Assembly: GCA_022447685.1 (NCBI GenBank)
Contig: JAKVAO010000001.1
Location: 22,939 to 86,938 of the forward strand
Reading direction: 5' to 3'
From: Candidatus Caenarcanales bacterium
GTDB taxonomy: Bacteria > Cyanobacteriota > Vampirovibrionia > LMEP-6097
DNA: 64,000 bases
The notes beneath the pieces were generated by a model. The model was not told where the DNA came from. It saw only the letters and a program-made list of their open reading frames with translations, and made no database searches. Shown in pieces: positions 29,056 to 56,413 of the stretch; position 1 is the stretch's first letter; each line of letters opens with the position of its first letter. Position numbers and translations under genes: made by a program.

Positions 29056-29068
29056 AGGATCAATAATC

Positions 29069-29266
29069 ATGGCAGAAAAAAATAGAAAAAAAATATCAAT
29101 AAAATTAGTTAGAGGATATGCTGCAGCTTCTAAGAAACAATCAAAAGTTTTAGAATCTTTAGGATTGAGAAAAACTAATGCTGTAGTTGATCATTTCGAC
29201 TCTCCTACAATTTTAGGGATGGTTAAGAAAGTTGAGCACTTAGTGCAAGTTCAGGAACTTGTATAA
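29069..29266 (+). CDS. rpmD: 50S ribosomal protein L30
   Basis: MAEKNRKKISIKLVRGYAAASKKQSKVLESLGLRK...ILGMVKKVEHLVQVQEL. The internal Met was chosen as the start because it removes the overlap with rpsE (the ORF track starts at 29048). Confidence 0.85.
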   Translation: MAEKNRKKISIKLVRGYAAASKKQSKVLESLGLRKTNAVVDHFDSPTILGMVKKVEHLVQVQELV

Positions 29267-29291
29267 GTTATATTGTTAGGAGTTTGAGAAA

Positions 29292-35326: not shown

Positions 35327-35914
35327 ATGAAAAAAATATGCTTGCTAAGCTTTGTGTTGTTTTTCTTGCTATCTTGTTCTAATAACGAGATAGCTCTAAA
35401 TCCTAGTGAGAATAAGGCTTTAAGTTCAGCTTCTAAAGCTCATATCGCTATGCAAGATTTAAGTTACGAGGAGCTTAGTTCAGAAGATAGAGAATTGCTT
35501 GATCACGCCAAAGATGCTATGTCTAAGTCATATTCTCCCTACTCTCATTTTCATGTTGGTTCAGCTTTAAGATCATTTGACGGTGAAATTATTACAGGAT
35601 CCAATGTTGAGAACGCAGCTTATGGTCCTAGTAAATGTGCTGAGCAAGTGGCATTAACTAGAGCTAATATGATGGGACAAGCCAAGATTAAGACTATAGC
35701 TATCATTGGTAAAGGTGAAGATTTTGAGACTGAAGAAGTTGTAGCACCATGTGGGGTTTGCCGCCAGGTTATCTATGAATTTGCTCAGAGGTCTGATACT
35801 GATATTAAGATCATTATGTCGAATTCCAGGCGTGACAAAATTATTGTTTCCACCATCAGTGAGTTATTGCCACTTGCTTTTGGTCCTAAAGATTTAGGGA
35901 TTAATGTTGAATGA
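35327..35914 (+). CDS. cdd: cytidine deaminase with N-terminal lipoprotein signal
   Basis: Tetrameric-type Cdd motifs (YSPYSHFHVGSA, NVENAAYGPSKCAEQVA, APCGVCRQV and ELLPLAFGPKDLG, which is very close to B. subtilis Cdd). It is preceded by MKKICLLSFVLFFLLSC|S (lipobox). Confidence 0.75.
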   Translation: MKKICLLSFVLFFLLSCSNNEIALNPSENKALSSASKAHIAMQDLSYEELSSEDRELLDHAKDAMSKSYSPYSHFHVGSALRSFDGEIITGSNVENAAYGPSKCAEQVALTRANMMGQAKIKTIAIIGKGEDFETEEVVAPCGVCRQVIYEFAQRSDTDIKIIMSNSRRDKIIVSTISELLPLAFGPKDLGINVE

Positions 35915-37146
35915 AGATTCTTCACAGTTCTGATTGGCATATTGGAAAGTATCTCTGTGAAAGAAAGAGATACGATGAATTTGAAGCTTTTTTTGACTGG
36001 TTATTAAAAGAGATTGAAATACTTGAAATAGACGTGCTTCTTGTTGCTGGAGATATTTTTGATACTGCTGCCCCTAATAATAGGGCTCAACAGATTTACT
36101 ATAGTTTCCTTTCTAATTTAGTTAAATCCAAGTGCAGGCACGTAGTTATTATTTCTGGTAATCATGATTCCCCTTCCTTCATCAGCGCTCCACAGAATAT
36201 TCTCAAATCTTTAGATATACATTTAGTTGGAACTGTAACTGGAAACTATGAAGATGAACTAGTTGAAATTAAAGACAAAAATGGTGATGTCGAGTTATTG
36301 GTTTGTGCTGTGCCTTATTTGCGAGACAAAGATGTTCGTAAGTCTCAAGCTGGAGAGAGTATTGAAGAGAAATCTGAAAAGCTGGTAGCTGGAATTAAAG
36401 AGCATTACCGTGAAGTGATGAATGTCGCTTTAGCTAGAAGGAAAGAGCTTAATTCAGATAGATATATCCCTATTCTTGGGATGGGACACTTGTTTACGGC
36501 AGGTGCAAGTCCTGGAGAGGGAGTTCGGGATCTTTATGTTGGTTCTTTAGGCTATGTAAGTGCAGACACTTTTCCTTCGGAATTAGATTACGTTGCTCTT
36601 GGGCATTTGCATATTGCCCAGAAAGTTGGGGGAGATGATCGTATCAGATATTGTGGTTCACCTATTCCTATGGGCTTTGGGGAAGCTAAGCAGGTTAAAA
36701 AATTAATTAGTTTAGAGTTTGATGCCAACTCCAATCATCCTAAAATCAGTGAGATACCGATACCTAGTTTTCAGTCTCTAGAGAAAATTTCTGGTGATGA
36801 AAAGCTTATAGAAACTAGAGTTCAGGATTTAATTAGCTCGAAGAGTAGTGCTTGGCTCGAAATTGAGTATGATGGACTTTTGGATGCACAGAATTTTAGA
36901 GAGAGAATTATTGAAATTTTGGCTGAAACTGATTTGGAGCTTCTTAGGTTTAAAAATAAAAAAGTGGTGAATCATTATCTTACCGCTAGTGTTCATGAAG
37001 AGAAATTGGAGGACCTTAGTCCTATAGATGTTTTCAATCGTTGTCTAGAGGATAATGAGGTTGATTCAAATGATAAAGATTTGTTACTTGTCAGTTACTC
37101 AGAGATTCTAAAATCAATCCAGGAGGAGGATCTAAAAGCAGAGTGA
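35911..37146 (+). CDS. sbcD: exonuclease SbcCD, nuclease subunit D
   Basis: Calcineurin-like phosphoesterase motifs MKILHSSDWHIGK, LVAGDIFD and GNHDS (Mre11/SbcD). Translationally coupled to sbcC. Confidence 0.85.
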   Translation: MKILHSSDWHIGKYLCERKRYDEFEAFFDWLLKEIEILEIDVLLVAGDIFDTAAPNNRAQQIYYSFLSNLVKSKCRHVVIISGNHDSPSFISAPQNILKSLDIHLVGTVTGNYEDELVEIKDKNGDVELLVCAVPYLRDKDVRKSQAGESIEEKSEKLVAGIKEHYREVMNVALARRKELNSDRYIPILGMGHLFTAGASPGEGVRDLYVGSLGYVSADTFPSELDYVALGHLHIAQKVGGDDRIRYCGSPIPMGFGEAKQVKKLISLEFDANSNHPKISEIPIPSFQSLEKISGDEKLIETRVQDLISSKSSAWLEIEYDGLLDAQNFRERIIEILAETDLELLRFKNKKVVNHYLTASVHEEKLEDLSPIDVFNRCLEDNEVDSNDKDLLLVSYSEILKSIQEEDLKAE

Positions 37147-40100
37147 AGATACTAGAGTTACGTTTCCAGAATTTAAATTCTCTTCATGGTGAATGGATGA
37201 TTGATTTTCGTGATGATGCTTTTCTTGAAAATGGTATTTTTGCGATTACTGGAGCTACAGGTGCTGGTAAAACTACTATACTCGATGCGATTACTTTAGC
37301 TTTGTTTGGTGCAACAGCGCGCCTAGGTAAAATTACAGAAACTAGCAATGAAATTATGTCCAGGCATACTGGTGAGTGTTTTGCAGAGATTAGTTTTGAA
37401 ACAAAACAAGGCAGCTTTAGAGTTACATGGAGTCAGAGAAGATCCCGTAAACAAGCTGAGGGTAAGTTACAGACTCCCAAGCATGAGATTGTAAATGCTT
37501 TAACAGGTGAAATTATTGCCTCAACCAAACTTAGAGAAGTTGAAAAAGCTGTTGAGGATAGGCTTGGAATGAACTTTAAGCAATTCACTCGCTCTATTTT
37601 ACTTGCCCAAGGGAGTTTTGCAGCTTTTTTGCAAGCAAGTCCAGATGAAAGGGCTCCTATACTGGAGCAAATAACTGGTACCGAAATCTATACACAGATA
37701 TCGCTCAAAGTGCATGAAAGAAGAAATGAGGAAAAGAGTAAATTACTTTCTTTAGAAGACCAAGTTTCCAATATTAAGATTTTGACTGAAGATGAGCAGT
37801 TGGCGATGCAAAATTTATATTCTGAGAAAGAGAGTCTGAAAGACGCTATATATCAGCAGCATAAAGATATGCAGACTGAGCTTTCTAAGCTTAAGAATGA
37901 GGAAGCCTGGTTAAGAGAAAAGAATAAACTTGAAACTAACTTGATTAACTTAAATAAATCTCTTGCTGAAAATGCTTTGGAGCTTGATTCTGCTAAACAA
38001 AAACAAGTTAGTTTTGACTCGGCTTATAAGATTTTCTCTGAGTCTAAGAAAGGGAGGCTCACTTCAATTCAAAAGCTAAGAGAATTAAATTTTAAAATTT
38101 TTGAAGAAGAAAAGGTTCTTGCTAAATCTAGGTTAGATTTGAATAATATTAAACAAGATCAGCAGAATTTAAAGCAAGAAAAAACTCAGATTGAGAAATT
38201 CATAGCGACTTCTTCTAGCAAATTTGAAGAATTCAATAGTTACTTTGCAAAATCTCTTGATTTGAAAACTATTGAGGCTAATATTAGTAGTCTTGAAGCT
38301 TTAGCTAAAGCAAGCTGTAAGCTGGAGCAGGAACTGGATAAAGAGATTAAGTATAAAGAAAGTCTAGAAACCAAGCTAATACAGGCTCGCAAAGAATTTA
38401 AGCAATTAGATCAAGACTCTAAGACTTATGAAGAGAAAAAAGCAAGTTATATAGAGAAGATCTCTGGCTTAGAGAAGAAAATTAATGATTTGCTGCAAGG
38501 CTTTAACCTAGAAGCATTTAGAGAACGAATCGAACTATACTCTCTGATGCTTGAATTAAAACAGCTAGAGAAAAGCAAGTGCTCAAGCTTAGAGTCTTTA
38601 GATTTATTTGCTAAGGATCTGAAAATTTATGCTGAGAAGAAAGAACTATTAGAAGCATTGTGTAAGGAACTGGAGAAGAACCGAGAACAGGAGCTTAAAA
38701 TACTCAACCTAGAGGAAGAGAGAAAGAAATTACTAGCAGGTGAGGCTTGCCCACTATGTGGTTCTCTTGAGCATCCTTTCGTAGAGTCTAATACGGAGTT
38801 TGAAGATTCAAGTTCAGAGCTTTCTATCAAGAAACAAGATTTGGCTGAGCTTTTGGAGAAGCAGAAGCAAATATTATTGGAGACCGCTGCGCTAGAAAAA
38901 GAAATAGAAGTCTTCAATAATAATATTGAGCAGCTCACCGAAAAACTAGAGAACCTGTCACTAGTAAATGATTTACTTGAAAATCTTAAGAATCAATCAG
39001 TTAAGCATCTTGAAGATGATTTACTCGATATGAAAAATAAACTTAAACAGATTGAAAGTTTTGACTTAGATCTAAATTCTTCAAATAAATTGCTAAGGGA
39101 GCTTGACTTAAAATTTGCAAGTTCAGCTGAGCAAAGAAATAGAATCAAAGAAAATGGTTTGAAACTCAAGTCTGAGTCTGAGCTTTTAGGAAAACGCTTG
39201 GTGGATTCTAAAGAAGAACTTAAAAATACAGAACTAGAGTTTGTGAACACACTTAAGCTCATAGATGCTTCTCTAGAGATCGATGAAAATATTTCTCGGA
39301 CTTTTCAGGCTTTGAAATGTAACTATGTAAGCTTGAAAGAGAAGAAATTAGAAGCTGAACAGCTTCAATTAAGTATTAAAGAAGCAGACTTGAAAGTTTC
39401 ATCTATAGATAAATCCCTAGGCTTTACACTAGAAAAGCTGCAAGCTCAAGAGTCTGCCTTGAATCTGTCTTTAAAACAATTAGAAGAATTAACTTCTCAT
39501 AGAAAAAGTGAATTCTCTGAAAGTTCCCCAGAGGCTTTGGAAGCAGCTTTGGAGCAGGAAGACTTAGCTTTGCAAAGACAAGAAAAAGATCTTATTCAAA
39601 AAATTAATGAACTTGAGAATCAAAGATCTTTAGTTAAGCTTGAAATAGATAACATAAGCAACCGTATTAAAGAATTAGAATCTGAACTGGAATCTGCTAA
39701 GTTTATATACCTAAATGAATTAGAGCAAGCAATAGCTGACTTGAGTCATAACCTTGAAGTTAAATTTAATGAGCTTAGTGAATTGAATCAAGAGCTTGGA
39801 ATAATCAAAGAAAAACTGGAATCTAATGCTCAAGCCAAAAAAAACTTTGCTGAAAAAATTCAGCAGCTTAATATGCAGAAAAAAGAACTCGAAAGATTTA
39901 ATTTATTGCATGAACTTATAGGTTCTTCAGATGGTAAGAAGTTTAGGAATTTTGCTCAGGGTTTAAGCTTTGAGATTATGATAAATCAAGCAAATAGACA
40001 GCTAGAGAAGATGACAGATAGATATTTGTTGATTAGAGATGAAAAAAACAATTTAGCATTAAATATTCTCGATAATTATCAGGCTGGAGAAATTCGTTCT

Positions 40101-40418
40101 ACTAAGAATCTGTCTGGTGGTGAAAGCTTCATTGTCAGTTTGGCCCTAGCGCTTGGCTTATCTAAGATGGCGAGTAACAATATTCAGGTTGATTCATTGT
40201 TTTTGGATGAAGGCTTTGGTACCTTGGATGAAGAGGCTTTGGAAACTGCAATTTCTGTTTTATCTGGCTTGAAAGAAGATGGTAAGTTGATTGGAGTTAT
40301 TTCCCATATCCCTGCACTTAAAGAACGAATTCCCACTCAGATTCATATCGAAGCTTCTAGTCTGGGTAGAAGTTCCATTCATGGCGCTGGAGTTAAAAAA
40401 ACTGTTGTATGCACTTAG
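37143..40418 (+). CDS. sbcC: exonuclease SbcCD, ATPase subunit C
   Basis: N-terminal Walker A ITGATGAGKTTILDAI, a long coiled coil with a central zinc hook CPLCGS, and C-terminal signature LSGGESF plus Walker B LFLDEGFGTLD. 1091 aa. Confidence 0.9.
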   Translation: MKILELRFQNLNSLHGEWMIDFRDDAFLENGIFAITGATGAGKTTILDAITLALFGATARLGKITETSNEIMSRHTGECFAEISFETKQGSFRVTWSQRRSRKQAEGKLQTPKHEIVNALTGEIIASTKLREVEKAVEDRLGMNFKQFTRSILLAQGSFAAFLQASPDERAPILEQITGTEIYTQISLKVHERRNEEKSKLLSLEDQVSNIKILTEDEQLAMQNLYSEKESLKDAIYQQHKDMQTELSKLKNEEAWLREKNKLETNLINLNKSLAENALELDSAKQKQVSFDSAYKIFSESKKGRLTSIQKLRELNFKIFEEEKVLAKSRLDLNNIKQDQQNLKQEKTQIEKFIATSSSKFEEFNSYFAKSLDLKTIEANISSLEALAKASCKLEQELDKEIKYKESLETKLIQARKEFKQLDQDSKTYEEKKASYIEKISGLEKKINDLLQGFNLEAFRERIELYSLMLELKQLEKSKCSSLESLDLFAKDLKIYAEKKELLEALCKELEKNREQELKILNLEEERKKLLAGEACPLCGSLEHPFVESNTEFEDSSSELSIKKQDLAELLEKQKQILLETAALEKEIEVFNNNIEQLTEKLENLSLVNDLLENLKNQSVKHLEDDLLDMKNKLKQIESFDLDLNSSNKLLRELDLKFASSAEQRNRIKENGLKLKSESELLGKRLVDSKEELKNTELEFVNTLKLIDASLEIDENISRTFQALKCNYVSLKEKKLEAEQLQLSIKEADLKVSSIDKSLGFTLEKLQAQESALNLSLKQLEELTSHRKSEFSESSPEALEAALEQEDLALQRQEKDLIQKINELENQRSLVKLEIDNISNRIKELESELESAKFIYLNELEQAIADLSHNLEVKFNELSELNQELGIIKEKLESNAQAKKNFAEKIQQLNMQKKELERFNLLHELIGSSDGKKFRNFAQGLSFEIMINQANRQLEKMTDRYLLIRDEKNNLALNILDNYQAGEIRSTKNLSGGESFIVSLALALGLSKMASNNIQVDSLFLDEGFGTLDEEALETAISVLSGLKEDGKLIGVISHIPALKERIPTQIHIEASSLGRSSIHGAGVKKTVVCT

Positions 40419-45564: not shown

Positions 45565-46209
45565 GTGGATAAGAAAGAGAAAAATAGATACGTAATGTTT
45601 AAGGCAGTTGAAGAAGTGCTTCTCAGCAGTGAGGAAACTTTGAGTTCAACTCCAGCATTATCCTTAGTATTCAAGGATTTTCAAAAATTACTTGGAGAAA
45701 TTAATGAGGTCGATAATAAATATAAATTAGTTTCAGAAGGAGCTGCTGCAAAGAAAGATAAGTCTGAGGATGATTTGATTGATGCTTTGCTCGCTGTTGC
45801 TGGAGTGGTTTATATCTATGCTCGAAGAAATGATGATGAGCAATTGAAGGCTATGACTAGGCTTACTAGTAGCAGCCTGAAGAAAATGCGCGATGCTGAT
45901 TTGTTGCAGAAAGCTAAAGGAATAACTCAGATGATCGAAGATAAATTTCAGGAACTTAAGAAATTTGGTTTGGAGAGAGACATTCTAAAAGACCTTCAAC
46001 AGAAAGTATCTAATTATGAAAATGCTTCAGATTCTAAAGACGCTAAGTTTGGGCAGAGTAAAGCTGCTAGACAAGAGCTAACTGAGATTTTTGAGCAGGC
46101 AAATGAGATCTTGAATGAAGAGCTAGACACAGTTATGGATTTTGTGAAAACCAAAGATTCCTCTCTCTATAAGGATTATCATGCTACTCGTTCGATTAAA
46201 GATGTTTAG
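45565..46209 (+). CDS. hypothetical alpha-helical protein
   Basis: GTG start with RBS AAAAGGAG 6 nt upstream. 214 aa. Followed by a strong intrinsic terminator. Confidence 0.45.
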   Translation: MDKKEKNRYVMFKAVEEVLLSSEETLSSTPALSLVFKDFQKLLGEINEVDNKYKLVSEGAAAKKDKSEDDLIDALLAVAGVVYIYARRNDDEQLKAMTRLTSSSLKKMRDADLLQKAKGITQMIEDKFQELKKFGLERDILKDLQQKVSNYENASDSKDAKFGQSKAARQELTEIFEQANEILNEELDTVMDFVKTKDSSLYKDYHATRSIKDV

Positions 46210-46244
46210 TTTCTATTTCTCACTGGCATGAGATTTTGTGTGTA

Positions 46245-46272
46245 AAGCACCCCTTTGGGGTGCTTTTTTATT
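46245..46272 (+). terminator. rho-independent terminator
   Basis: AAAGCACCCC TTTG GGGTGCTTT followed by TTTTATT, read directly from sequence. Confidence 0.7.
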
Positions 46273-46326
46273 CTTGAACATTGAAATATTAATGAAATAA
46301 TAACGTTATAAGTATATAATTATATT

Positions 46327-46542
46327 ATGGCAAAAATTAAACAACTACAAAAAGTAGGGACAAGTAAAGGAATCGTAATTGATAAGCCAATTTTAGAGAT
46401 GCTTGATCTTGACCATGATGAGGCTGCTGTAGAGTTTGAAATTACTCCTGAGGGATTATTATTAAAACCTGCAAAGATTGAATCTATTTATAAAAAAGTT
46501 GCTAAAAAACATCGTAAGTCACTTGATAAGTTAGGTAAGTAA
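46327..46542 (+). CDS. AbrB/MazE/SpoVT-type antitoxin-like DNA-binding protein (Phd/MazE class)
   Basis: 71 aa. VGTSKGIVIDKPILEMLDLDHDEAAVEFEITPEGLLLKP is the swapped-hairpin AbrB/MazE fold pattern. Its stop overlaps the start region of the Doc-family gene. Confidence 0.65.
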   Translation: MAKIKQLQKVGTSKGIVIDKPILEMLDLDHDEAAVEFEITPEGLLLKPAKIESIYKKVAKKHRKSLDKLGK

Positions 46543-46628
46543 TTCTGTATTTTCTAAATTTAGAAGAAGTTCTTTTTATACATCAAGCTGAGACTTCTTA
46601 TGCTAAGCATGATTCAAATGTTCGAGAT

Positions 46629-46928
46629 TTGAACTTACTCAAATCCTCAATTGAAAATATTGAGATGATTTATATCAATGCTTACGATACCAATATATTT
46701 TCTCTTGCGAGTTACTATATAAAGTATATAAGCTTAAATCACCCTTTTGTCGATGGGAATAAGCGTACAGCATTAGCTTCAGCTGTTGTATTCTTAGAAT
46801 TTAATGGGTACTCTATTGATGAAACATATGAAGAAGAATTAGCAGACTTAGTTTTAAATTTCATTAATAAAAAGATTCAACAAAAGGATTTAGTTCAGTT
46901 TCTAAGAGGTAACTCTAGAAAGAATTAA
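46629..46928 (+). CDS. doc: Doc/Fic-family toxin (death-on-curing type), annotated from a TTG. The conserved N-terminal helix lies further upstream in frame.
   Basis: HPFVDGNKRTALASAVVFLEFNGY is the Doc Fic-motif (HxFx[DN]GNKR). The upstream in-frame codons encode LNLEEVLFIHQAETSYAKHDSNVRDL, which matches the Doc N-terminus but has no ATG/GTG/TTG start. Confidence 0.75.
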   Translation: MNLLKSSIENIEMIYINAYDTNIFSLASYYIKYISLNHPFVDGNKRTALASAVVFLEFNGYSIDETYEEELADLVLNFINKKIQQKDLVQFLRGNSRKN

Positions 46929-46955
46929 TTTATGGATAAAGAGCCTATAGATTAA

Positions 46956-49193
46956 ATGATGAGTAAACTGTGTGTAAATTTAGAATATTGTTATGGCATA
47001 AAAAAACTTTGTCATGAATTTGATTTTGAAGGAGGGGAGACAAGTATTATATATGCACCTAATGGTTCAATGAAAAGCTCTTTTGCTAGAGTATTTAAGG
47101 ACTTGAGTAAAAGTGAATTGTCTAAGGACTTGATGTTCCCTGAAAGAAACTCTAAGCGTGAGGTTTTAGTTTGTGACAGTGATAGAGAGAGCGGTAGAAA
47201 GATTGAAGCTGAAGAAGTTTTAGTTATAGAACCTTATGTAGAAAACTATGAATTAGATGAAATGTCTACTCTCCTAGCAAAACCTGATCTGAGACAAAAA
47301 TACGCTGAGATTCATAAAGAAATTGCAACTAAACAAGATATTGCCTTAAAAGCCTTAATCAAAAATACTGGTTATTCTAAAGCTAAAAATGATCAAAAAG
47401 AAAAAATTTATAACAAGCTACTTAAATCTTTCGGTGAAAAGGATTTGAAAGAGTTATTTGAGAAAATTTTAGAATCTATCGATAAATATAATGAACATGA
47501 ACTCCGTGATATTGAATATAAGCAAATTTTCAATTCAGAATCAGAGACTTTACTTAAAAATGAAAAATTCAGATCACATATTAGCGATTATGTAACTCTC
47601 TATGAGAAATTAATAGATCAATCACAATATTTGAGTAAAGATTTCAATGATTACAACGCTAATCAAATTCAAAAGCAATTAGATAATAATGGTTTCTTTA
47701 AATCTGGTCATAAGCTTAAAATGAAAAATAAAGAAGAATTGATTGATAATCAAGAGCAGTTGAAATCTCTGATTGAAGAGGAAAAAGAGAAAATCTTTAA
47801 TGACGATGAATTGAAAAATAAGTTTATAGAATTTGAAAATTTATTAAATAAGAAAGAAGATAGGCGGTTTAGAGATTATTTACAAAATAATCAGAAACTA
47901 ATTCCATACTTAGAAAATCTTGATAGTTTAGAAAAAACTCTTTGGATGATATATGCTTCAGAGGCCAAGTCTGAACTTGAAGATTTTTCTAAATCTTACA
48001 GCAAAGGGAAAGATGAGTTGTTAAAGATTGTTCGGGAAGCTAAAGAAAGTAAAACAACTTGGATGGAAGCTATGAAAACTTTTAATGAGAGATTTACTCA
48101 CTTACCTTTTTCGCTTAGCCCTATAAACAAGGAAGATTGTATCCTACATGAAGAAGAGCCTAATATTCAATTTGTTTTTAAAGAAAATGATGAACTGCAA
48201 AGGAATGTTGAGAAAGAAGATCTATTAAAAGTATTGAGTCAGGGAGAAAAGCGAGCTCTCTATTTGCTCCATATTATTTTTGAAATTGAAATTAGAAAGT
48301 GTAAAAAACAGAATACTTTTATTATCATTGATGACATCGCTGATTCATTTGATTATAAAAATAAGTATGCAATCATTGAATATTTGCAAGATATTTCTAA
48401 AGATCAGAACTTTAAGCAAATTATACTCACGCATAATTATGATTTTTATAGAACTACCAAGAGTAGATTAGCTATTCCTAAAAAGCTTTGTTTTCAGGTT
48501 TATAAAGGAAACAAAGAAATAAAACTTTTGGGGGATATAATTGGGCAGAATCCTATTGTAGAAATTATAAATGATATTTACTCAGCAGAGGACGGTGAAT
48601 TTAATGATATTAATTTAATTGCTTCGATCCCTATTCTTAGAAATATTTCAGAATACTTGGGCTTGCAAGAGTTTAAAAATCAATTAACCTATATGCTTCA
48701 TATTAAAGCTGGAAAAGATTCTATTATTGGAACCTACGATATTACAGTTGGAGATTTAACCAAGATCTATAATGTAGTCAATAGGGGCAGTATTGAATAC
48801 CCTATGGATAGAGAAGAGAAAATTCTTGATTTGATTTATAAAGTAGCTGATGATTTCCTGTCTGATAAAAAAGAAACTTTAAGTTTAGAAAATAAAATAG
48901 TGTTAGCTATGGCTATTAGACTTAAGGCTGAAGAAAAAATGATAAGTGATTTAAAGGAATTTGACTCATCCTTTAACATACCAAGTAGTCCAAAGCAGAC
49001 ACGCGATCTATCTAAAAAATATCAAAAGCTCCTAGAGAAAGAGCGTGAAAAATCTATATTAGAAAGAGTTCGTGTCATGACCCCTGAAAATATCCACATA
49101 AATTCTTTTATGTATGAACCCATACTTGACATGGCAGATGTTGAACTTAAACATTTATATACTCAAGTGAATGATATTTTGGGCGAAAATTAA
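46956..49193 (+). CDS. AAA_13-like (PrrC/RloC-type) ABC ATPase with long coiled-coil insertion and an uncharacterised C-terminal domain of about 250 aa
   Basis: Deviant Walker A IIYAPNGSMKSS (aa 31-42). K/E-rich coiled-coil from about aa 100 to 400. ABC signature LSQGEKRALYLL (nt about 48233-48250). Walker B/D-loop FIIIDDIADSFD (nt 48318-48335). H-loop ILTHNYDFY. Confidence 0.6.
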   Translation: MMSKLCVNLEYCYGIKKLCHEFDFEGGETSIIYAPNGSMKSSFARVFKDLSKSELSKDLMFPERNSKREVLVCDSDRESGRKIEAEEVLVIEPYVENYELDEMSTLLAKPDLRQKYAEIHKEIATKQDIALKALIKNTGYSKAKNDQKEKIYNKLLKSFGEKDLKELFEKILESIDKYNEHELRDIEYKQIFNSESETLLKNEKFRSHISDYVTLYEKLIDQSQYLSKDFNDYNANQIQKQLDNNGFFKSGHKLKMKNKEELIDNQEQLKSLIEEEKEKIFNDDELKNKFIEFENLLNKKEDRRFRDYLQNNQKLIPYLENLDSLEKTLWMIYASEAKSELEDFSKSYSKGKDELLKIVREAKESKTTWMEAMKTFNERFTHLPFSLSPINKEDCILHEEEPNIQFVFKENDELQRNVEKEDLLKVLSQGEKRALYLLHIIFEIEIRKCKKQNTFIIIDDIADSFDYKNKYAIIEYLQDISKDQNFKQIILTHNYDFYRTTKSRLAIPKKLCFQVYKGNKEIKLLGDIIGQNPIVEIINDIYSAEDGEFNDINLIASIPILRNISEYLGLQEFKNQLTYMLHIKAGKDSIIGTYDITVGDLTKIYNVVNRGSIEYPMDREEKILDLIYKVADDFLSDKKETLSLENKIVLAMAIRLKAEEKMISDLKEFDSSFNIPSSPKQTRDLSKKYQKLLEKEREKSILERVRVMTPENIHINSFMYEPILDMADVELKHLYTQVNDILGEN

Positions 49194-49203
49194 CTTCAGG
49201 ATT

Positions 49204-49566
49204 CTAAGATCCACTACCAGAAAAATAAGTAATTCTAGCCACAGAAACTTCAGAAACAAACATAACTCCAGATTGCCCTTCTAGTAGTGTTCTCAAGCCT
49301 CTTGCGATATTACTGATTACATCTTCAGGTGCTACAGCCATGACCATGACTTGGCTAGACTTATCATTGAACAGTAATCTACCTTCGTGTGAACCGCTGT
49401 GACCATAACCAGAGACATTCGGAATTATCGTATAGCCAGTAACTCCTGAGTCCTGCATCATATTCGTCACCTTCTCTTGATTCTCACCAGAAATGACTAC
49501 TTCGATTTTAAGCATTTTGCTTAATTTTAGCCCAGTGTTTTCTTCATCAAAAAATACGTTGTCCAT
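49204..49566 (-). CDS. PII-like (nitrogen-regulatory-protein P-II superfamily) protein associated with the DAB operon
   Basis: 120 aa. Ferredoxin-like PII-type fold pattern (KIEVVISGENQEKVTNMMQDSGVTGYTI...GRLLFNDKSSQVMVMAVAPEDV). Sits immediately downstream of dabA. Confidence 0.55.
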   Translation of the reverse strand: MDNVFFDEENTGLKLSKMLKIEVVISGENQEKVTNMMQDSGVTGYTIIPNVSGYGHSGSHEGRLLFNDKSSQVMVMAVAPEDVISNIARGLRTLLEGQSGVMFVSEVSVARITYFSGSGS

Positions 49567-49577
49567 ATAACTTATCC

Positions 49578-52280
49578 TTACAGATCGTCGAAATTATCGA
49601 CGTTTATAATACTACCAGTATCTGGCTCAATAATGGTAAGATAAATCCACTGATTTCTGAATAAGGTAAGTAAGTTAAGGTTTCTTTTAAGAATATTTTC
49701 TACTCTCTCATATGGAGCGTGAATTACGACCCTCAATCTAAGTGGTTTGTGAAATAACTCCTCATCACTTTTGAACACTGATTGTAAACTAAGTCCAGTG
49801 AATAGATCACTCATGTTTCCTTGAAGTACACCTAGGTCACCAACTATATTATGGGTGATTTTGCTGCCACTTCCGAAGTTTTTGATATCCATAGAAGAGA
49901 AGTAGTATTGGTTGTTAATCCACTGTGTGACTACCATTGGACCTCCCATGATAGTTTCAAGTAAAGTTCCATCTGGATCAGACTCTTGTCTGTAGGAGTG
50001 CATGAACACTCTATTAGAAAGATTATTACCTTTGGTAAGTTCTCTTGGTCCAATGACGAAAGCCATATTCCCAGCAAGCCCCCACTCAGGTCTTGTCTCT
50101 GACCAGTCTATAGATTTAGCTAGAATTGCTGCATCATCGATATCAAAACTTTCATCACTATTTCTTGAGACTCTATTTAGCTTTGCTGCTATTTTTAAGT
50201 TTGCTTTTAGTTCTTTTAACTTCTCGATTTTTTCTGGATGGGTGATTTCAATATCGTAGATTTCAATTTCGTCAGTGGTTGTATTGTGCTCCGCACCAAG
50301 GAAAACAGTAGTGTCTGGAATCTTGATACCATTATCTGCTATTGTTCTTCTGATTTCTGGAGTGTTGAGTACTTTTGCAAGAGTCTTAGCGTTAGAGCCA
50401 CCATGCTGTCCAGCACAAGCTCCGCAGTCTAATGCTGATGCGTATGGATTATTTTCTGTTTGGCTACCGTGTCCAGTGAAGAGTACAAATTCACTAAAAT
50501 TATCAGTAAGTCCCATTAGTCTTAAAGCAGTTTCTGCAAAGAAAGCTTGTTCCTTTCTAGATAGACCATGCTCGTTGGTTGGGCTCAAGTCTATATTAGG
50601 TTCGAAGTGTACTTTTGTTTTCTCTTTAGGGAAAAGCTTTTCTATACCTAGTTTTAATTTTAGAGTTATAGTTTTTAATAGCATGAGAGCTAAATAAATT
50701 AAACCTGAAGCTTCAGCAAATATGAAAGCCGCTGCTATATTGTTTTTCTGTGCTTTATAAGATTTATAGACTAATTCGGAGATGCGCTGGTTAATCTGAA
50801 AATCCATGAAATCTTCAGCACTTTTCGGGTGAACATGCTCTTCTACAACGTGCTTTGGACTTATTAGTACTGGGCATGCTGCTTGAGGATTGGTATCTTT
50901 GTGAGTTTTGTAACTGATTGGTAAACCAAAGAAACCAGCAAAGCCAAGTGTCTCAACGTTGGCAACGCTTTCTATAGATCTTCTAATACCTTCAGATCTG
51001 ACATCTATGCAGAATATCATCTGTGCTGTCGAACGCTTATTTTGAGCAGAGATACTACTCATTAATTCTTGGTTAACAGAGATCTGCTCAAGTAGTATAG
51101 AGTGTTCTGTAAGTTCCCAGCTCATTTGCATAATGTAACTTGCTCTGAGAGAGAATTCTTTGATCACTTCTCTGATTTTATTAAGTTCAGTATCACGAAG
51201 CATTTCTGGATCAACGTCATTGTTTAAATTACTTTTTTTAATTAGAGTAATTAGATTCTTATCACTGTATTTAATTTCATCAGGGATTATTTGTTGATTA
51301 TATTTCTCTAATTCTGAGTTCTGTTCCTGTAAAAGCTTTTTGAGAATTTGTTCTTCGAATTCTTCAAAATCATTTAAGCCATCTTTGTCTTTGAAATTTA
51401 AATAATCAAATAGATATATAATCTCAACTATCAGCCTTACTGCAAGGAAATCAGTTGTTTTGATTTTGTATTTGAAATCTTTGTTGTGACTATTCAGCTC
51501 TCTCCACTTGATAAAGCTTGACCAGCCACTTTGGCAACATAGATTCGATTTCAGGTATTCATCCCAGTCACTTTCTTTTAGACCCAAGGTCTCAAGTGCT
51601 ACTACTACTGTCTTCTCTGAGGAATCTGGCAGCATTTTGATCCAGGATTTGATTTTTCTATTCTTGCTAAGTTTGTCATCGAAAGGAGCTAGCTTTTTCC
51701 AGCAAGTATAAAAACCTTGATCTCTATTTGGTAATTCCCATGTAGCTTGACTTTCATCGAAGTAAGCTGCGCAGAGATAGTTCATGTAATTATTAACTTT
51801 ATCTAGGGTGCGCCCGTTGTTTATATGCTGAGAATATGGATAAGTTTTCTCTGGCTTTTGACGAAATTCTTCTATAACTCTTTGCTCAAGAAGTTTTAGT
51901 AGTAGAGGTGAGGTTTTTAAGGACTTGCCATTATCAAGTTCAATGTCATTGAAGTGTTTATCAATAGTCTTTAAAAGTAACTCACGGTTTATCTCATTGT
52001 TATCGAGTAAGTCATAGTATTTTTTGATGGGAAAGAAAGATTCTGCATCGAAATATTTAGCTGCATCTTTAGTTGCATCAAAGAAGTGCTGGTCTTCAAA
52101 CCCTTTCAATGGATTAATTGCAATGAAACTTTTTAGTGACCAATTGGTATTCACGACTTCGAAGGCATTCGCTACAAGAGCTGTGATCATATTTGTGGTA
52201 AGTTTTTTATCATCAAAACTCTTGTGAACATTGTTGAGAGTTGAAGTTAATGCCTCTTGGTCTTTTAAACTGGTAATCAT
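49578..52280 (-). CDS. dabA: DabA (DUF2309) subunit of a DAB-type energy-coupled CO2 hydration / inorganic carbon uptake complex
   Basis: 900 aa. DUF2309 hallmark MIFCIDVRSEGIRR (Cys-x-Asp zinc ligands) and FTGHGSQTENNPYASALDCGACAG (His and Cys ligands). Directly downstream of a PF00361-type membrane subunit. Confidence 0.85.
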   Translation of the reverse strand: MITSLKDQEALTSTLNNVHKSFDDKKLTTNMITALVANAFEVVNTNWSLKSFIAINPLKGFEDQHFFDATKDAAKYFDAESFFPIKKYYDLLDNNEINRELLLKTIDKHFNDIELDNGKSLKTSPLLLKLLEQRVIEEFRQKPEKTYPYSQHINNGRTLDKVNNYMNYLCAAYFDESQATWELPNRDQGFYTCWKKLAPFDDKLSKNRKIKSWIKMLPDSSEKTVVVALETLGLKESDWDEYLKSNLCCQSGWSSFIKWRELNSHNKDFKYKIKTTDFLAVRLIVEIIYLFDYLNFKDKDGLNDFEEFEEQILKKLLQEQNSELEKYNQQIIPDEIKYSDKNLITLIKKSNLNNDVDPEMLRDTELNKIREVIKEFSLRASYIMQMSWELTEHSILLEQISVNQELMSSISAQNKRSTAQMIFCIDVRSEGIRRSIESVANVETLGFAGFFGLPISYKTHKDTNPQAACPVLISPKHVVEEHVHPKSAEDFMDFQINQRISELVYKSYKAQKNNIAAAFIFAEASGLIYLALMLLKTITLKLKLGIEKLFPKEKTKVHFEPNIDLSPTNEHGLSRKEQAFFAETALRLMGLTDNFSEFVLFTGHGSQTENNPYASALDCGACAGQHGGSNAKTLAKVLNTPEIRRTIADNGIKIPDTTVFLGAEHNTTTDEIEIYDIEITHPEKIEKLKELKANLKIAAKLNRVSRNSDESFDIDDAAILAKSIDWSETRPEWGLAGNMAFVIGPRELTKGNNLSNRVFMHSYRQESDPDGTLLETIMGGPMVVTQWINNQYYFSSMDIKNFGSGSKITHNIVGDLGVLQGNMSDLFTGLSLQSVFKSDEELFHKPLRLRVVIHAPYERVENILKRNLNLLTLFRNQWIYLTIIEPDTGSIINVDNFDDL

Positions 52281-52324
52281 GGTTAAATCCTTTATTTTGA
52301 GTTGCGATTAATCTGTATTTGTTT

Positions 52325-53668
52325 TTAATTCGCGTATTCACCTCTAACACTAGTATTGGTAACTTCTTTACTCATTGAGGTGTTTTTGAGAAAAGCGTAT
52401 ATTCTCAAATGTAATTCCTCTGGAAGAGCATAGAGTATATCTTCTTTATAGTTCATTGCTAACCAAAGTAGGACAAATGGACTGAGCAGAAGCCAGTGCG
52501 GTAGATGAATTGCATAAGTATGCATGTGAACGCTACTAACTAAGACTAATTCGAAAAAGTGTATGAATGCTCCATAGAGTATTGCAGCTGAGACCGAGAC
52601 AAAGAATGCAAAGAATGGAACTAGGAAGTTTTTACTACTGGTAAGTATGCTCAGGCTAAGTTGTGTTAATGCCATAAATATAAATGCAAATAAAATAATG
52701 GAACTGTCGTAGAAATTAATTGGAATATGCGCAGCTACAGAAAAAAGATTGATGGAAACATATGAAAACCCCATGGCAATTACTAGTAATAATGTTTTCT
52801 GAGCAACGGTTAACCTAAGTTTTTCTGGACGCTTGATTTGAATACCTGAGCCAGCGGCAAGGAAGTGAAAGGCTTTGAATAAGCCGTGCATGATTAAATG
52901 GCTTATTGCAGCTGGGAAAAGACCAAGTCCAATTTGGAGCACCATGAAACTCATTTGAGAAACAGTGGAGCACACTAAAGTAGCTTTTACTGTATTCTTC
53001 GTGAAAGCCCAAAGCATTGCAACGAAAGCGCTAAAGGCACCAATGAAGCTTAAGATGCTTAGAAATATAGGTTGTTCTAGCAGCATAGGGCTAAGTTTTA
53101 CTAAGAGAAAGCCACCACCGTTAACTATCCCTGCGTGCATTAGAGCTGAGATTGGTGTTGGCGAATTCATAGATGAAATCAACCAACCATGGAAAGGTAG
53201 CAGAGCTGACTGTGTGAGTGCAGTTATGCAAACTAGGCTTAAAGAAATGATTTGATAATTACCAGGAATGTCTCCAAAGCTTTGGTTGAGCTTGGTGATG
53301 CTGAGTTCACCAGTGTAGATATAAGTGATAATGCTAAAACCAAGTAAACAAGCTATACCTATACCAAAGTTTCGTGCTGCAACTATCCCAGATTCGAAAG
53401 CTGCTTTCCATTTATCTTTGTGGATCATGAGTAGCACCAAAAGGACATTCGTTAATGCGTAGAAAAAACAAAAAGCAATCAAATTATCTGTATTCACTAG
53501 TAAGCAAGCTGAAACTATAAGTGCAAAGAGTCTTACAAAGTATGTTTTGTATAAAGAATCTCCACTGATATAGTTCTTCGAAAACTGGGTGATTATAAAT
53601 CCAACAAATAAAACTAATATAGTTAGACTTAAGCCAAGTGAATTGATCTGAAATATTGAATTGAGCAT
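52325..53668 (-). CDS. dabB: DabB, proton-conducting membrane subunit (NuoL/MnhA-like) of the DAB complex
   Basis: 447 aa, about 13 TM helices, NuoL/Mrp antiporter-like core (HAGIVNGGGFLLVKL and HLIMHGLFKAFHFLAAGS). Operon partner of DUF2309. Confidence 0.75.
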   Translation of the reverse strand: MLNSIFQINSLGLSLTILVLFVGFIITQFSKNYISGDSLYKTYFVRLFALIVSACLLVNTDNLIAFCFFYALTNVLLVLLMIHKDKWKAAFESGIVAARNFGIGIACLLGFSIITYIYTGELSITKLNQSFGDIPGNYQIISLSLVCITALTQSALLPFHGWLISSMNSPTPISALMHAGIVNGGGFLLVKLSPMLLEQPIFLSILSFIGAFSAFVAMLWAFTKNTVKATLVCSTVSQMSFMVLQIGLGLFPAAISHLIMHGLFKAFHFLAAGSGIQIKRPEKLRLTVAQKTLLLVIAMGFSYVSINLFSVAAHIPINFYDSSIILFAFIFMALTQLSLSILTSSKNFLVPFFAFFVSVSAAILYGAFIHFFELVLVSSVHMHTYAIHLPHWLLLSPFVLLWLAMNYKEDILYALPEELHLRIYAFLKNTSMSKEVTNTSVRGEYAN

Positions 53669-53884
53669 TAATTTCTTCCTTCGAGAAAGTTCGTGGTAAC
53701 TATAAGCAATATGCCCTGCAGTTATGATACTTATCTATAATAATAGTTAATCATAGCTCATAAGTAAAGCTTTGATTTGGGCGGCAGGATTATAAGCTTA
53801 GCTAATCTCCGTGCTAGGATTAATCCGTGGGCTTGTGAAGTGATTGCTCTGCATCAAATTCAAAGCATCGAGTTTCTAATAATT

Positions 53885-54739
53885 ATGTCTAATCTTGAAA
53901 TTGGTAATCTAAAATGTTTTATAGCTGTAGCTGAAGAAGGAAGCTTCACTAAGGCTGCAAATAAAATTAATATTACTCAGTCGGCTCTGTCGCAACAGGT
54001 ATCACGTTTAGAGAAAAACTTGAAAGTGCAATTATTAAATAGAAGTAAAAATAATACTCTGACTGATTCGGGTGAACAGTTACTTCGCTATGCAAAGCAG
54101 ATAGTTAAACTTGAACAAGAAGCCCTGGATTATTTTCTTGAACCTGAGCTGGAGGGGGAGCTATCCTTTGGTTTACCGGAGGATTTTGCGACTTTGTTTC
54201 TGCAAGATATTCTTGCTGATTTTATATTTCATCATCCTCGTATCTCAGTGAAGGTAGAATGTGATTTAACTCTGAATTTACTTGCAGGGTTTAAGAAGAA
54301 TAAATTTGATCTAGTCTTGGTTAAACTTGATGATTTATCTGATTTCCCGAATGGGGTTGAAATTCGTTCAGAGAAATTAGTTTGGGTAGCAGCTAAGGAT
54401 TTTCAGCAGGCTTCCTCTGGAGCATTACCTTTGGTTCTTTCACCTAAACCTTGTGTCTACAGAGCAAGGGCCCTTAAGGCTCTCAATGAAAAAAATATTA
54501 AATCTAAAATCGTATACTCTAGCCAAAGTTATATTGGTTCAAATGCAGCTGTTAAAGCTGGGCTTGGAATTACAGTACTTCCCAAAAATATGATCCCAGA
54601 AGGTTTATACGAGTTTAAATCAAGTAAATTACCAGCACTTGAAGATACACATATAGCTTTACTTACTAATGGTTCCAATTCTAAAGCTCTGCAATCATTT
54701 GCAAACTATGTATCAGAAAAGCTGCATAGCCTTATCTAG
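53885..54739 (+). CDS. LysR-family transcriptional regulator, divergent from the dabBA operon
   Basis: N-terminal HTH NLKCFIAVAEEGSFTKAANKINITQSALSQQVSRLEKNL, C-terminal LysR substrate-binding domain. Start moved to the internal Met (the ORF track begins at 53777). Confidence 0.8.
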   Translation: MSNLEIGNLKCFIAVAEEGSFTKAANKINITQSALSQQVSRLEKNLKVQLLNRSKNNTLTDSGEQLLRYAKQIVKLEQEALDYFLEPELEGELSFGLPEDFATLFLQDILADFIFHHPRISVKVECDLTLNLLAGFKKNKFDLVLVKLDDLSDFPNGVEIRSEKLVWVAAKDFQQASSGALPLVLSPKPCVYRARALKALNEKNIKSKIVYSSQSYIGSNAAVKAGLGITVLPKNMIPEGLYEFKSSKLPALEDTHIALLTNGSNSKALQSFANYVSEKLHSLI

Positions 54740-55079
54740 GAGTAACTGCTTCCTCGTCCTCTTCTCCAGTTCTTATTCTGTAAACTTTCTCAATTGGACT
54801 TACAAATATCTTACCGTCACCAACTTCTCCAGTTTTAGCTGATTTTAAAATACTTTGAATGGTTCTTTCTTCGAAGTGATCAGAAACTCCAATTTCAATT
54901 TTGATTTTTTCAGTTAAGCCAATCTTTACAGTTGTACCTCTATAGGTCTCGATCTTTTCGGCTTCACCACCGTGTCCTATGACTTTAGATACTGTTAAAC
55001 CTTGAACTTCAACATCAAATAATGCTTCTAAAACATCATTCAATTTTTCTTTTCTGATAATTGCAGTAATTAATTTCAT
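54732..55079 (-). CDS. glnK: nitrogen regulatory protein P-II (GlnK type)
   Basis: MKLITAIIRKEKLNDVLEAL...T-loop GHGGEAEKIETYRGTT with the uridylylation-site Tyr. 115 aa. Immediately downstream of amtB. Confidence 0.85.
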   Translation of the reverse strand: MKLITAIIRKEKLNDVLEALFDVEVQGLTVSKVIGHGGEAEKIETYRGTTVKIGLTEKIKIEIGVSDHFEERTIQSILKSAKTGEVGDGKIFVSPIEKVYRIRTGEEDEEAVTPR

Positions 55080-56413
55080 AAATTTTGCTCCGCCAAGTTT
55101 TTCACAGCCAGGCTATCTCTTTCTAGAATCAAGAGAGCGCCTTCGCCTTCAGTATAAGCTTCCTCGCCATGCATAGCGATATCAAGTCCTTGTTTTTCAG
55201 CGTTTTCCTCAACTCTAAATGGAATAACAAGATTAATGAGGCTCGCTATTATATATGTCATAACAGCGCTGTAGCCAATGGCAATTATGACAGCTATAGC
55301 TTGTACTAGGACTTGCAGGTAACTACCATCTACTTCAGATCCCCATGCTTTACTAATGAACAGGCCTGTAAGTAATGATCCGACTATACCACCTAAGCCA
55401 TGAGCACCAAAAACATCTAATGAATCATCAAAGGCTGTTCTAGAACGCCACATGATAATGAAATAACAAGGAAATGTACTCAAGGCTCCAATCAATATTG
55501 CAGAGAGAGGTGACATAAGTCCAGCTCCAGGAGTGATAGCTACTAAACCAACAATGATTGATGTCGCGAGTCCAACAGCGGTAACTCTTTTGGTGTAAAG
55601 GCAGTCAAGTAATGACCAGCAAATAATTGCAGCGGCTGGTGCAAGTAGAGTGTTAGCCATCGCTAGTGCAGCTTCTGCATTCGCTGCATAAGCACTACCA
55701 CCATTAAATCCAAACCAGCCAAACCAGAGTATTCCAGCTCCAAGTAATGTAAATGGCACTTGGTGAGGGAGCATAGCAAGTTTACCGATATCTTTTCTTT
55801 TACCTATGAATAATGATAAAACGACTGCACTAATAGCAGCGTTGATATGAACAACTGTTCCACCAGCGAAGTCAATAGCCTGTCCCAGCCAAAGATGCTC
55901 AAATAGTCCGCCGCCCCAGACCCATTTTGCCATAGGCGCGTATACAAGTATGCTCCAAATGAAAATGAAAAGCATATAGGCTCTAAAATGAATACGTTCA
56001 ACAACTGCACCACTAATTAAAGCAGTTGTGATTATGGCAAAGGTTCCTTGAAACAAAAAATCAAGAATTCTTGGTATACCGCCATCTTCTGTCGCTTCGA
56101 GTCCAACTCCATTCATGAAAGCAAAATCCAGACCACCTATAAACAGATTGCCATCTGAGTAAGCAAGGCTGTAGCCGATTAATGCCCAGGTGATACTTAC
56201 TATTCCCATGGGGATGAAGCTCATCATCATAGTGTTTAAAGCGTTTTTCTTTCTGACTAAGCCTGCGTAGAAAAAGGCTAGACCTACAATCATAAAAAAT
56301 ACAAATGAGCTTGAAACTAGTAGCCAGCAAGTATCGACAGAATTAATGGAAGGAGACATATATAGAGTGAAGTTTTTTAAATTTCTTTTAACTCTAGCAT
56401 TTAGGTACCGCAA
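55076..56413 (-). CDS. amtB: ammonium transporter
   Basis: 11-TM Amt/MEP protein with paired His (VVHINAAISAVV and LDVFGAHGLGGIVG). Translationally coupled to glnK. Confidence 0.85.
   Translation of the reverse strand: MRYLNARVKRNLKNFTLYMSPSINSVDTCWLLVSSSFVFFMIVGLAFFYAGLVRKKNALNTMMMSFIPMGIVSITWALIGYSLAYSDGNLFIGGLDFAFMNGVGLEATEDGGIPRILDFLFQGTFAIITTALISGAVVERIHFRAYMLFIFIWSILVYAPMAKWVWGGGLFEHLWLGQAIDFAGGTVVHINAAISAVVLSLFIGKRKDIGKLAMLPHQVPFTLLGAGILWFGWFGFNGGSAYAANAEAALAMANTLLAPAAAIICWSLLDCLYTKRVTAVGLATSIIVGLVAITPGAGLMSPLSAILIGALSTFPCYFIIMWRSRTAFDDSLDVFGAHGLGGIVGSLLTGLFISKAWGSEVDGSYLQVLVQAIAVIIAIGYSAVMTYIIASLINLVIPFRVEENAEKQGLDIAMHGEEAYTEGEGALLILERDSLAVKNLAEQNL

Follow-up and report, generated by a model that had tools for sequence, protein, structure and literature searches.

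A 64,000-nucleotide stretch of contig JAKVAO010000001.1 from a Candidatus Caenarcanales bacterium (contig positions 22,939 to 86,938, forward strand; this whole stretch is referred to as the window and positions are counted from its first letter) carries at positions 46956 to 49193 of its plus strand an open reading frame (ORF) that starts with ATG and encodes a protein of 745 amino acids (aa). Judged from its sequence, this gene is an intact and divergent member of PDC-S46, a PADLOC candidate family of nucleoside triphosphatases (NTPases) with a head of the type found in ATP-binding cassette (ABC) and structural maintenance of chromosomes (SMC) proteins. Its Walker A motif reads APNGSMKSS, with a methionine where a glycine would normally precede the Walker lysine, and this methionine is a hallmark of the family, kept by purifying selection, and not a lesion of the window copy. 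We consider it rather probable that the protein is a single-polypeptide defence or abortive-infection factor, gated by a nucleoside triphosphate (NTP) and acting through a C-terminal effector. The window gene itself is an ordinary intact member of PDC-S46 in what looks like a small acquired islet, and the family has already been catalogued as a candidate; the novelty lies at family level, in a fixed P-loop methionine and a tail matching no known fold.

An intact NTPase with a deviant Walker A motif

The gene and the motifs of its predicted active site are located as follows.

46956 to 49193, plus strand: ABC/SMC-head-type NTPase of PADLOC candidate family PDC-S46 (profile matches)
46992 to 46994, plus strand: Y13 in a C-Y-G motif, 27 residues ahead of the Walker lysine (alignment)
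47055 to 47081, plus strand: deviant Walker A APNGSMKSS, residues 34 to 42, including M39 and K40 (family consensus [AS]xNGx[M/L]K[ST]S)
48234 to 48248, plus strand: ABC signature (C-loop) LSQGE, residues 427 to 431 (LSxGE in 83 of 84 loci)
48315 to 48353, plus strand: Walker B TFIIIDD (residues 454 to 460, nucleotides 48315 to 48335) followed by D-loop SFD (residues 464 to 466) (DD in 84 of 84 loci)
48429 to 48437, plus strand: H-loop THN, residues 492 to 494 (H493 and N494 invariant)

An earlier note on this DNA had drawn attention to the non-canonical P-loop, and its register was found to be correct. A regular-expression search of the whole protein returned no GK[ST], and the only xK[ST][ST] sites were MKSS at residue 39 and SKTT at residue 365, the latter within a helical insert described below. 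In an AlphaFold2 model Walker A lies between a strand (residues 29 to 33) and a helix (residues 40 to 51), the classical position of a P-loop, and the 10-residue blocks around it have mean predicted local distance difference test (pLDDT) scores of 88 to 96. The absence of GK[ST] from the protein and the correct strand-loop-helix placement rule out a mis-registered P-loop. Weak matches to the PADLOC PDC-S06 profile (residues 20 to 59) and to the NCBIfam ArtP model (residues 7 to 51) cover the same N-terminal segment, which we take to be the Walker A site of an ABC ATPase, and so give the register independent support.

The Lys-Ser-Ser of the P-loop, the signature, Walker B and the H-loop, all described as intact in the same note, are indeed present, and key residues are invariant in an alignment of 105 sequences (Y13, N36, G37, K40, S42, S428, G430, E431, D459, D460, S464, D466, H493 and N494, with L427 of the signature also invariant). 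Y13, whose motif reads CYG or CFG in 124 of 138 representatives, is presumably the A-loop aromatic that in ABC ATPases stacks on the nucleotide base. The position of the Q-loop glutamine is occupied by E92, a glutamate in 86 of the 105 sequences. Every family-invariant residue is retained by the window copy.

The P-loop methionine is fixed across the family

The replacement of glycine by methionine proved to be lineage-wide. All 120 relatives recovered by a protein search have methionine before the Walker lysine, and 119 of them fit [AS]xNGxMK[ST]S, the single failure having NW for NG with the methionine kept. At 84 loci retrieved from genomic and metagenomic sequences this position is methionine in 79 and leucine in five, while among 150 representatives of 50%-identity clusters the P-loop was present in 146, with methionine in 144, leucine in one and phenylalanine in one. 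Glycine was found in none of the approximately 350 relatives examined, so that a mutation peculiar to the window copy, and perhaps inactivating, is ruled out. The first Walker A position is alanine or serine across the family. The earlier note had counted the alanine as a second deviation; that part did not stand, since a Walker A beginning with alanine is normal in EcoPrrC (AxxGxGKT) and the methionine is therefore the sole truly deviant feature.

The affected position is glycine in nearly all NTPases, and here a large bacterial and archaeal family has fixed a bulky hydrophobic residue with its other catalytic motifs kept; if the site is active, PDC-S46 represents a natural experiment on the purpose of the Gly-Lys step in Walker A. 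Active P-loop ATPases with a residue other than glycine at this position include MCM (GDPxx[AS]KS) and MoxR (GxPGxAKT), in which it is alanine or serine and not methionine. We know of no precedent for methionine at this position.

A role of the methionine as an internal translation start was also considered and rejected, as some members carry leucine or phenylalanine at the same position. Three public gene models (P0159, P0216 and P0253) start exactly at the P-loop methionine (MKTSFAK...) and are presumably truncated or miscalled; a conserved in-frame ATG within Walker A can mislead gene callers.

That Y13, K40, D459, D460, S464, D466 and H493 never vary speaks against a dead site, though it is no proof of hydrolysis, and conservation of the active site in this form would be expected of an NTP-dependent dimerisation switch. 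A different interpretation is that PDC-S46 proteins are pseudo-ATPases or pure nucleotide sensors, the methionine abolishing hydrolysis and the head serving as a static sensor or scaffold for the C-terminal domain. [quoted passage not shown] However, residues of catalysis and the transition state are invariant, namely D460 at the water-activating position, H493, S464, D466, S428, G430 and E431. The active MCM and MoxR enzymes moreover tolerate alanine or serine, though not methionine, in place of the glycine. Residues equivalent to these invariant ones are essential in EcoPrrC, where both Walker B aspartates, the D-loop residues and the H-loop histidine are all required (PMC3025547). We accordingly regard a head devoid of hydrolytic activity as unlikely.

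Family membership and distribution

The PADLOC PDC-S46 model (PDLC05023) matched the window protein with E=5.1e-225, aligning residues 2 to 740 to positions 1 to 717 of the 719-position profile, and phrog_38705, for which PHROGs gives no function, matched it end to end with E=4.8e-142. The window copy differs from the rest of the family in a few lineage-specific short insertions and in its setting, which is not a restriction-modification (R-M) system; a Phd/Doc pair stands upstream instead. It is the lone member of its own 50%-identity cluster, with a best identity of 43–46% to other members.

In a PADLOC scan of 60 relatives, all 60 matched PDC-S46, 55 weakly matched mad8 of the MADS system (best 2.4e-8, confined to the C-lobe of the head) and a few matched PDC-S06; the scan returned only families of these types, and neither a PrrC nor an RloC profile was matched. 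The preprint on MADS holds nothing informative on mad8. The earlier note had called the protein AAA_13-like, a label that fails at profile level. A Pfam scan of the window protein (E<=0.1) gave no match, so the protein is not AAA_13 by profile; the family consensus likewise matched nothing in Pfam, and PF13166 (AAA_13) matched a single one of the 60 relatives, at 1.3e-9. Scanning the protein, its 60 relatives and the consensus against Pfam, NCBIfam and PADLOC thus gave no support for membership of AAA_13, PrrC or RloC.

The family is large, with more than 5790 matches in a database clustered at 90% identity and 672 clusters at 50% identity (E<=1e-30). GTDB species genomes from a wide range of bacterial phyla and from Micrarchaeota and Woesearchaeota yielded at least 439 loci, and the distribution is patchy across phyla at 35–45% identity. 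Family members are also present on 29 plasmid records from many genera, where the annotation reads hypothetical protein, 'phage infection protein' or AAA family ATPase, on one phage record and at 11 IMG/VR loci. The PDC systems are a set of 145 candidates, nominated on account of their location within BREX, DISARM or type I R-M loci (Payne et al., bioRxiv 10.1101/2024.01.29.577857); the string PDC-S46 is absent from the supplements of that paper.

An SMC/Rad50-type head split by a short-helix insert

The AlphaFold2 model of the full-length protein has a mean pLDDT of 85.1 and a predicted template modelling (pTM) score of 0.66. When it was compared with known structures by Foldseek the best matches were the heads of SMC, condensin, cohesin and Rad50 proteins (E=1e-6 to 1e-4), with further matches to retron PtuA-type ATPases including those of retron Ec83 and retron IA, and a sequence search of the PDB returned the SMC head 4i99 (E=0.003). 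At superfamily level the head is that of an SMC/Rad50-type ABC ATPase, split by an insertion and carrying the signature motif. The insertion has two features of note.

47250 to 48095, plus strand: helical insert of approximately 280 aa, residues 99 to 380, between the halves of the ATPase head (AlphaFold2 secondary structure)
47688 to 47711, plus strand: conserved NGFFKxxH motif within the insert, residues 245 to 252 (alignment)

In the model the insert is built from numerous short helices plus a small hairpin, and it has invariant residues of its own, including those of NGFFKxxH. No CxxC zinc hook is present in the translation, which has seven cysteines.

These structural matches raise the question of whether the protein might be a housekeeping ATPase of DNA repair or chromosome maintenance resembling SMC or Rad50. 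Beyond the condensin, cohesin and Rad50 heads at the top of the Foldseek matches, 55 of the 60 relatives weakly match SMC_N (PF02463), one relative adjoins an SbcC-like/Metallophos/MksE cluster, and sbcD and sbcC lie in the window itself at 35911 to 40418, 6.5 kb upstream of the ATPase gene, a proximity that is probably coincidental. However, an opposite-strand respiratory operon separates sbcCD from the ATPase gene, which sits in a low-GC islet, and the insert is a helical bundle and not the long antiparallel coiled coil of SMC proteins. The patchy distribution described above, which includes plasmids and prophages, the embedding of relatives in R-M operons and the lack of any conserved kleisin or nuclease partner nearby all speak against a housekeeping function, to which we attach hardly any probability.

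A conserved C-terminal domain without a recognizable fold

The defence factor that we favour would require an effector, for which the region downstream of the head is the candidate.

48543 to 49190, plus strand: family-specific all-alpha C-terminal domain, residues 530 to 745, approximately 215 aa; putative effector or sensor (model and alignment)
48639 to 48656, plus strand: conserved C-terminal motif RNISEY, residues 562 to 567
48696 to 48707, plus strand: conserved C-terminal motif LHIK, residues 581 to 584
48885 to 48896, plus strand: conserved C-terminal motif LENK, residues 644 to 647
48918 to 48932, plus strand: conserved C-terminal motif RLKAE, residues 655 to 659
49080 to 49130, plus strand: conserved C-terminal motif TPENIHxNSFMYEPILD, residues 709 to 725

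In the AlphaFold2 model this region begins after the H-loop and two terminal strands of the head and forms a separate helical domain, so that the possibility, entertained in the earlier note, of a mere helical lid does not apply. The same note was right that the tail holds no motif recognizable by Pfam or fold searches, and wrong to call it an orphan; it is covered by the PDC-S46 profile, and no other part of the family is as well conserved. Among 82 diverse sequences R562, N563, H582, K647, R655, E659, T709, H714, N716, F718, M719, E721, P722 and D725 are invariant and E566, K584, E645, Q681 and N712 nearly so. R562, N563, H582, K647, R655, E659, H714, N716, E721 and D725, with the near-invariant E566, K584 and E645, make up an invariant polar constellation in the alignment. 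With approximately 20 invariant polar residues and no detectable relatives, the tail is a good place to look for new effector chemistry.

A dedicated AlphaFold2 model of residues 486 to 745 is confident, with a pLDDT of 83.7 and a pTM of 0.83. In the full-length model the most conserved stretch, residues 709 to 725, is a low-confidence loop, with pLDDT below 50 at residues 715 to 718, which would fit a segment that becomes ordered only upon binding of a substrate or partner. Searches of the PDB with the single sequence and with a profile left the domain unidentified, and PHROGs returned only the family's own model. An HD domain was considered and rejected, the alignment having no invariant His-Asp dipeptide.

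Comparison with PrrC, RloC and other defence ATPases

The resemblance to PrrC proposed in the earlier note was borne out for the motifs. Those published for EcoPrrC are AxxGxGKT, LSKGE, YVFIDD, SSLD and KFIITTH (PMC3025547), and the window protein has APNGSMKSS, LSQGE, TFIIIDD, DSFD and IILTH in the same order, with methionine in place of the PrrC glycine before the lysine. The spacing from the second aspartate of DD to the D-loop aspartate is six residues in both proteins (DDPVSSLD in EcoPrrC). Both combine in one polypeptide an ABC-type NTPase and a C-terminal domain that is an effector or resembles one, and some PDC-S46 relatives fill the hsdS-hsdR slot of type I R-M operons that PrrC occupies. 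The predicted ATPase closely resembles PrrC at the level of motifs and not at the level of profiles.

The two differ in several respects. PF13166 misses the window protein and nearly all of its relatives, and the window protein, at 745 aa, has its 280-aa helical insert where PrrC has only the short 'PrrC box'. This box (YYNAFYEDLFYWDND), which in PrrC lies between Walker A and the signature, is absent from the window translation, although an acidic and aromatic stretch at residues 91 to 102 (IEPYVENYELDE) loosely recalls it. The PrrC gene lies inside a type I R-M operon, whereas the window gene is not R-M-linked and a position within such an operon was found for approximately five of 78 relatives. 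In the C-terminal domain no similarity to the PrrC nuclease was detectable by sequence, profile or fold. Two R-x3-E pairs (R562/E566 and R655/E659) together with the invariant H582 and H714 recall the R320-x3-E324...H356 triad of PrrC; R562, R655 and E659 are invariant and E566 is present in 76 of 82 sequences. PrrC having been compared by its published description only, we treat this likeness to the PrrC/RloC triad as a possible lead and not as homology.

RloC, a distant homologue of PrrC, shares with the window protein a longer ABC-type NTPase, an insertion between the head halves, a C-terminal effector or its putative counterpart, and the form of a stand-alone defence-type gene, but the RloC insertion is a Rad50-like coiled coil with a CxxC zinc hook, whereas that of the window protein is a bundle of short helices without CxxC. 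The ABC head fold is also common to mad8 (MADS), PDC-S06, retron PtuA, AriA (PARIS), LmuB and GajA. These families have a canonical GK[ST], and in their systems the effector is either a protein of its own or a known nuclease (Toprim, HNH or another) fused to the ATPase, whereas the tail of the window protein matches no known fold.

Restriction and defence genes around PDC-S46

Independently of the basis on which the PDC set was nominated, R-M components were sought around relatives by iterative searching from seven seed proteins: 19 of 78 loci have type I, type III or SNF2-DUF4391 genes within four genes of the PDC-S46 gene, and at seven such genes flank it on both sides. The gene immediately upstream (77 loci) encodes a type III Res/helicase in five cases, DUF4391 in four, a type I HsdS in four, Mrr in three and an N6 methylase in three, with Eco57I, DpnII and type IIG/ISP enzymes also represented among upstream neighbours. 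The gene immediately downstream (76 loci) encodes a type III Mod in five cases and Mrr in four, and nSTAND3, GmrSD and D12 methylases also occur there. The layout of the prr locus is reproduced at one locus (L053) as hsdM-hsdS-X-hsdR, where X is the PDC-S46 gene, and at another (L019) with an additional AAA_14/DUF4143 gene ahead of hsdR. Also recurrent is a cassette in which a SNF2 helicase of approximately 1080 aa and DUF4391 precede the PDC-S46 gene and a type III-like Mod (N6_N4_Mtase) and Res (ResIII and RE_endonuc) follow it.

L003, 4044 to 15180 (also L043, L051, L080 and others): five-gene SNF2-DUF4391-X-Mod-Res cassette, resembling an extended type III-like R-M system

Among the copies on plasmids, some adjoin a type I M subunit and an antirestriction gene, some have MazEF, VapBC or HNH genes nearby, and others are solitary. 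The neighbours of the family are strongly enriched in restriction and defence genes, with R-M embedding frequent though confined to a minority of loci. No partner gene conserved beside the ATPase across the family was found, which fits the single-gene ('S') class assigned by PADLOC. Occupation of the PrrC slot in type I operons, together with the SNF2-DUF4391-X-Mod-Res cassette, would extend beyond PrrC the model in which a restriction guard has a suicidal backup.

The relative beside the SbcC-like/Metallophos/MksE cluster mentioned above (L001, 10177 to 15032, and L002, from Bacteroidetes metagenome bins) stands back to back with an SbcC-like ATPase of 1031 aa and with Metallophos and MksE-domain proteins, an arrangement that may be Wadjet/Mks-like.

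Proposed mode of action

By analogy with PrrC and other ABC defence ATPases, two heads of the favoured defence factor would bind NTP in a head-to-tail arrangement. An infection cue would trigger this nucleotide-dependent switch that licenses the C-terminal domain as a toxic effector, with abortive infection as the outcome. Where relatives are embedded in R-M loci, the R-M enzyme next door being lost or inhibited would probably serve as the cue. As effector, the domain would most plausibly be a metal-independent nuclease using arginine, glutamate and histidine residues, and the methionine side chain would probably retune the site, altering nucleotide preference or slowing turnover, with binding not abolished.

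A more specific version may be offered tentatively, although as a whole it is doubtful. PDC-S46 proteins might be functional analogues of PrrC, that is, guards that fire when a phage disables restriction, linked or unlinked, or some other host process. The methionine might confer an unusual nucleotide preference or a very slow turnover resembling a timer, and the tail might be a previously unseen nuclease fold, probably of an RNase, built around the invariant arginine, glutamate and histidine residues and the TPENIHxNSFMYEPILD loop.

Several observations weigh against a gated defence factor. The assignment of the C-terminal domain as an effector is weak, and the polar constellation described above is one seen at the level of the alignment. 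A Foldseek search with the model of residues 486 to 745 gave no significant fold match in either the PDB (best E=0.73) or BFVD (best E=0.41), and a permissive Pfam scan of 82 C-terminal segments returned only noise. The sole suggestive fold matches, in the PDB, were to HEPN toxins, with E>1, a probability of approximately 0.2 and target-normalised TM-scores of 0.34–0.42. The family motif RN[IL][AS]E[Y/F/H], in which R562 and N563 are invariant, resembles the Rx4H of HEPN proteins, but the site of the Rx4-6H histidine (residue 567) is tyrosine in 65, phenylalanine in 14 and histidine in only two of the 82 sequences; canonical HEPN chemistry is therefore unsupported, and a canonical HEPN domain was rejected. 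In the head, a bulky residue at the Gly-Lys step could impair phosphate binding and leave a site that only binds NTP or turns it over very slowly. As to context, approximately 60–75% of relatives are not R-M-adjacent, and the window gene has no adjacent R-M system, its neighbours being Phd/Doc, P-II/DabAB and a respiratory operon. The name PDC-S46 was found in no paper in a literature search, and the PDC set is one of candidates.

The locus in the window

Upstream of the ATPase gene lie a candidate antitoxin and a toxin gene, preceded by signals that could delimit a transcription unit.

46244 to 46266, plus strand: strong terminator-like hairpin of 10 pairs with a T run, ending the upstream unit (orf214) and marking the left edge of the islet
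46274 to 46320, plus strand: two overlapping sigma-70-like promoter matches, candidate promoter of the phd-doc-ATPase unit (consensus matches only)
46327 to 46542, plus strand: AbrB/Phd-like antitoxin candidate of 71 aa, directly upstream of doc (TIGR02609 doc_partner E=0.023, weak; phrog_4324 E=1.4e-4)
46542 to 46928, plus strand: Doc (Fic-fold) toxin gene with HPFVDGNKR intact (TIGR01550 E=7e-16 over profile positions 33 to 116 of 122; Pfam Fic; phrog_577, Doc-like toxin, E=9e-23)

Sigma-70-like matches in the region overall were no more numerous than in shuffled sequence. The 214-aa ORF ahead of the islet (orf214, 45565 to 46209, plus strand) had no match in Pfam, NCBIfam, PADLOC or PHROGs. 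Open from 46539 onward, the doc frame specifies an N-terminus normal for Doc (ILYFLNLEEVLFIHQ...) and contains no ATG, GTG or TTG before TTG 46629. A full-length Doc of approximately 128 aa requires initiation at ATT 46542 or CTG 46545, in a TAATT overlap with the phd stop codon, while a protein started at TTG 46629 would have 99 aa and fall approximately 30 N-terminal residues short. Given the lack of a canonical start before 46629, Doc is either translated by coupling from a rare start codon or attenuated or truncated by approximately 30 aa.

The guanine plus cytosine (GC) content of phd, doc and the ATPase gene is 0.29–0.315, compared with 0.36–0.39 for the flanking genes. On account of this difference from both flanks the three genes (46270 to 49200) look like one horizontally acquired low-GC islet, and they are probably co-transcribed. 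Chromosomal housekeeping genes border the islet, namely a Rieske/cytochrome b operon at one end and genes for P-II and DabA/DabB at the other. Many metagenome assemblies contain an identical protein with the same neighbours.

The ATPase might accordingly be conceived of as the third component of a Phd-Doc-ATPase toxin-antitoxin module, in which it would regulate or assist Doc and have no defence effector of its own. It follows doc on the same strand after a gap of 27 nucleotides, the three genes have their low GC content in common, a single terminator- and promoter-like stretch lies ahead of phd with no terminator-like site between doc and the ATPase gene, and this exact arrangement recurs in metagenome contigs carrying the window protein. 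However, when Doc, Phd and orf214 of the window were compared by BLAST with 570 neighbouring ORFs from 78 homologous loci no relative was found, indicating that the link between Phd/Doc and the ATPase is probably local. No partner family is conserved beside PDC-S46, in keeping with its 'S' classification, and toxin-antitoxin pairs often adjoin defence genes without a functional link. We judge such a module very unlikely, and retain the reading of the ATPase as a single-gene defence factor.

Downstream, the stop codon of the ATPase gene and that of a convergent P-II gene (49204) are separated by 10 nucleotides. No tRNA or Rfam RNA was found in scans of the 64-kb window. On the minus strand from 49204 to 53668 the P-II-like protein (120 aa) is encoded directly downstream of DabA (DUF2309, 900 aa) and a DabB-like NuoL/Proton_antipo_M protein (447 aa); together these would make up a module for inorganic-carbon uptake that has a P-II of its own. 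A divergent LysR regulator (53777 to 54739) follows, and then a second P-II (GlnK) with an Amt ammonium transporter (54732 to 56413). Further upstream in the window a ribosomal protein operon of the S10/spc region (22016 to 31119, plus strand), encoding L2, S19, L22, S3 and L16 through to SecY, accounts for a strong positive GC skew there and identifies the window as chromosomal.

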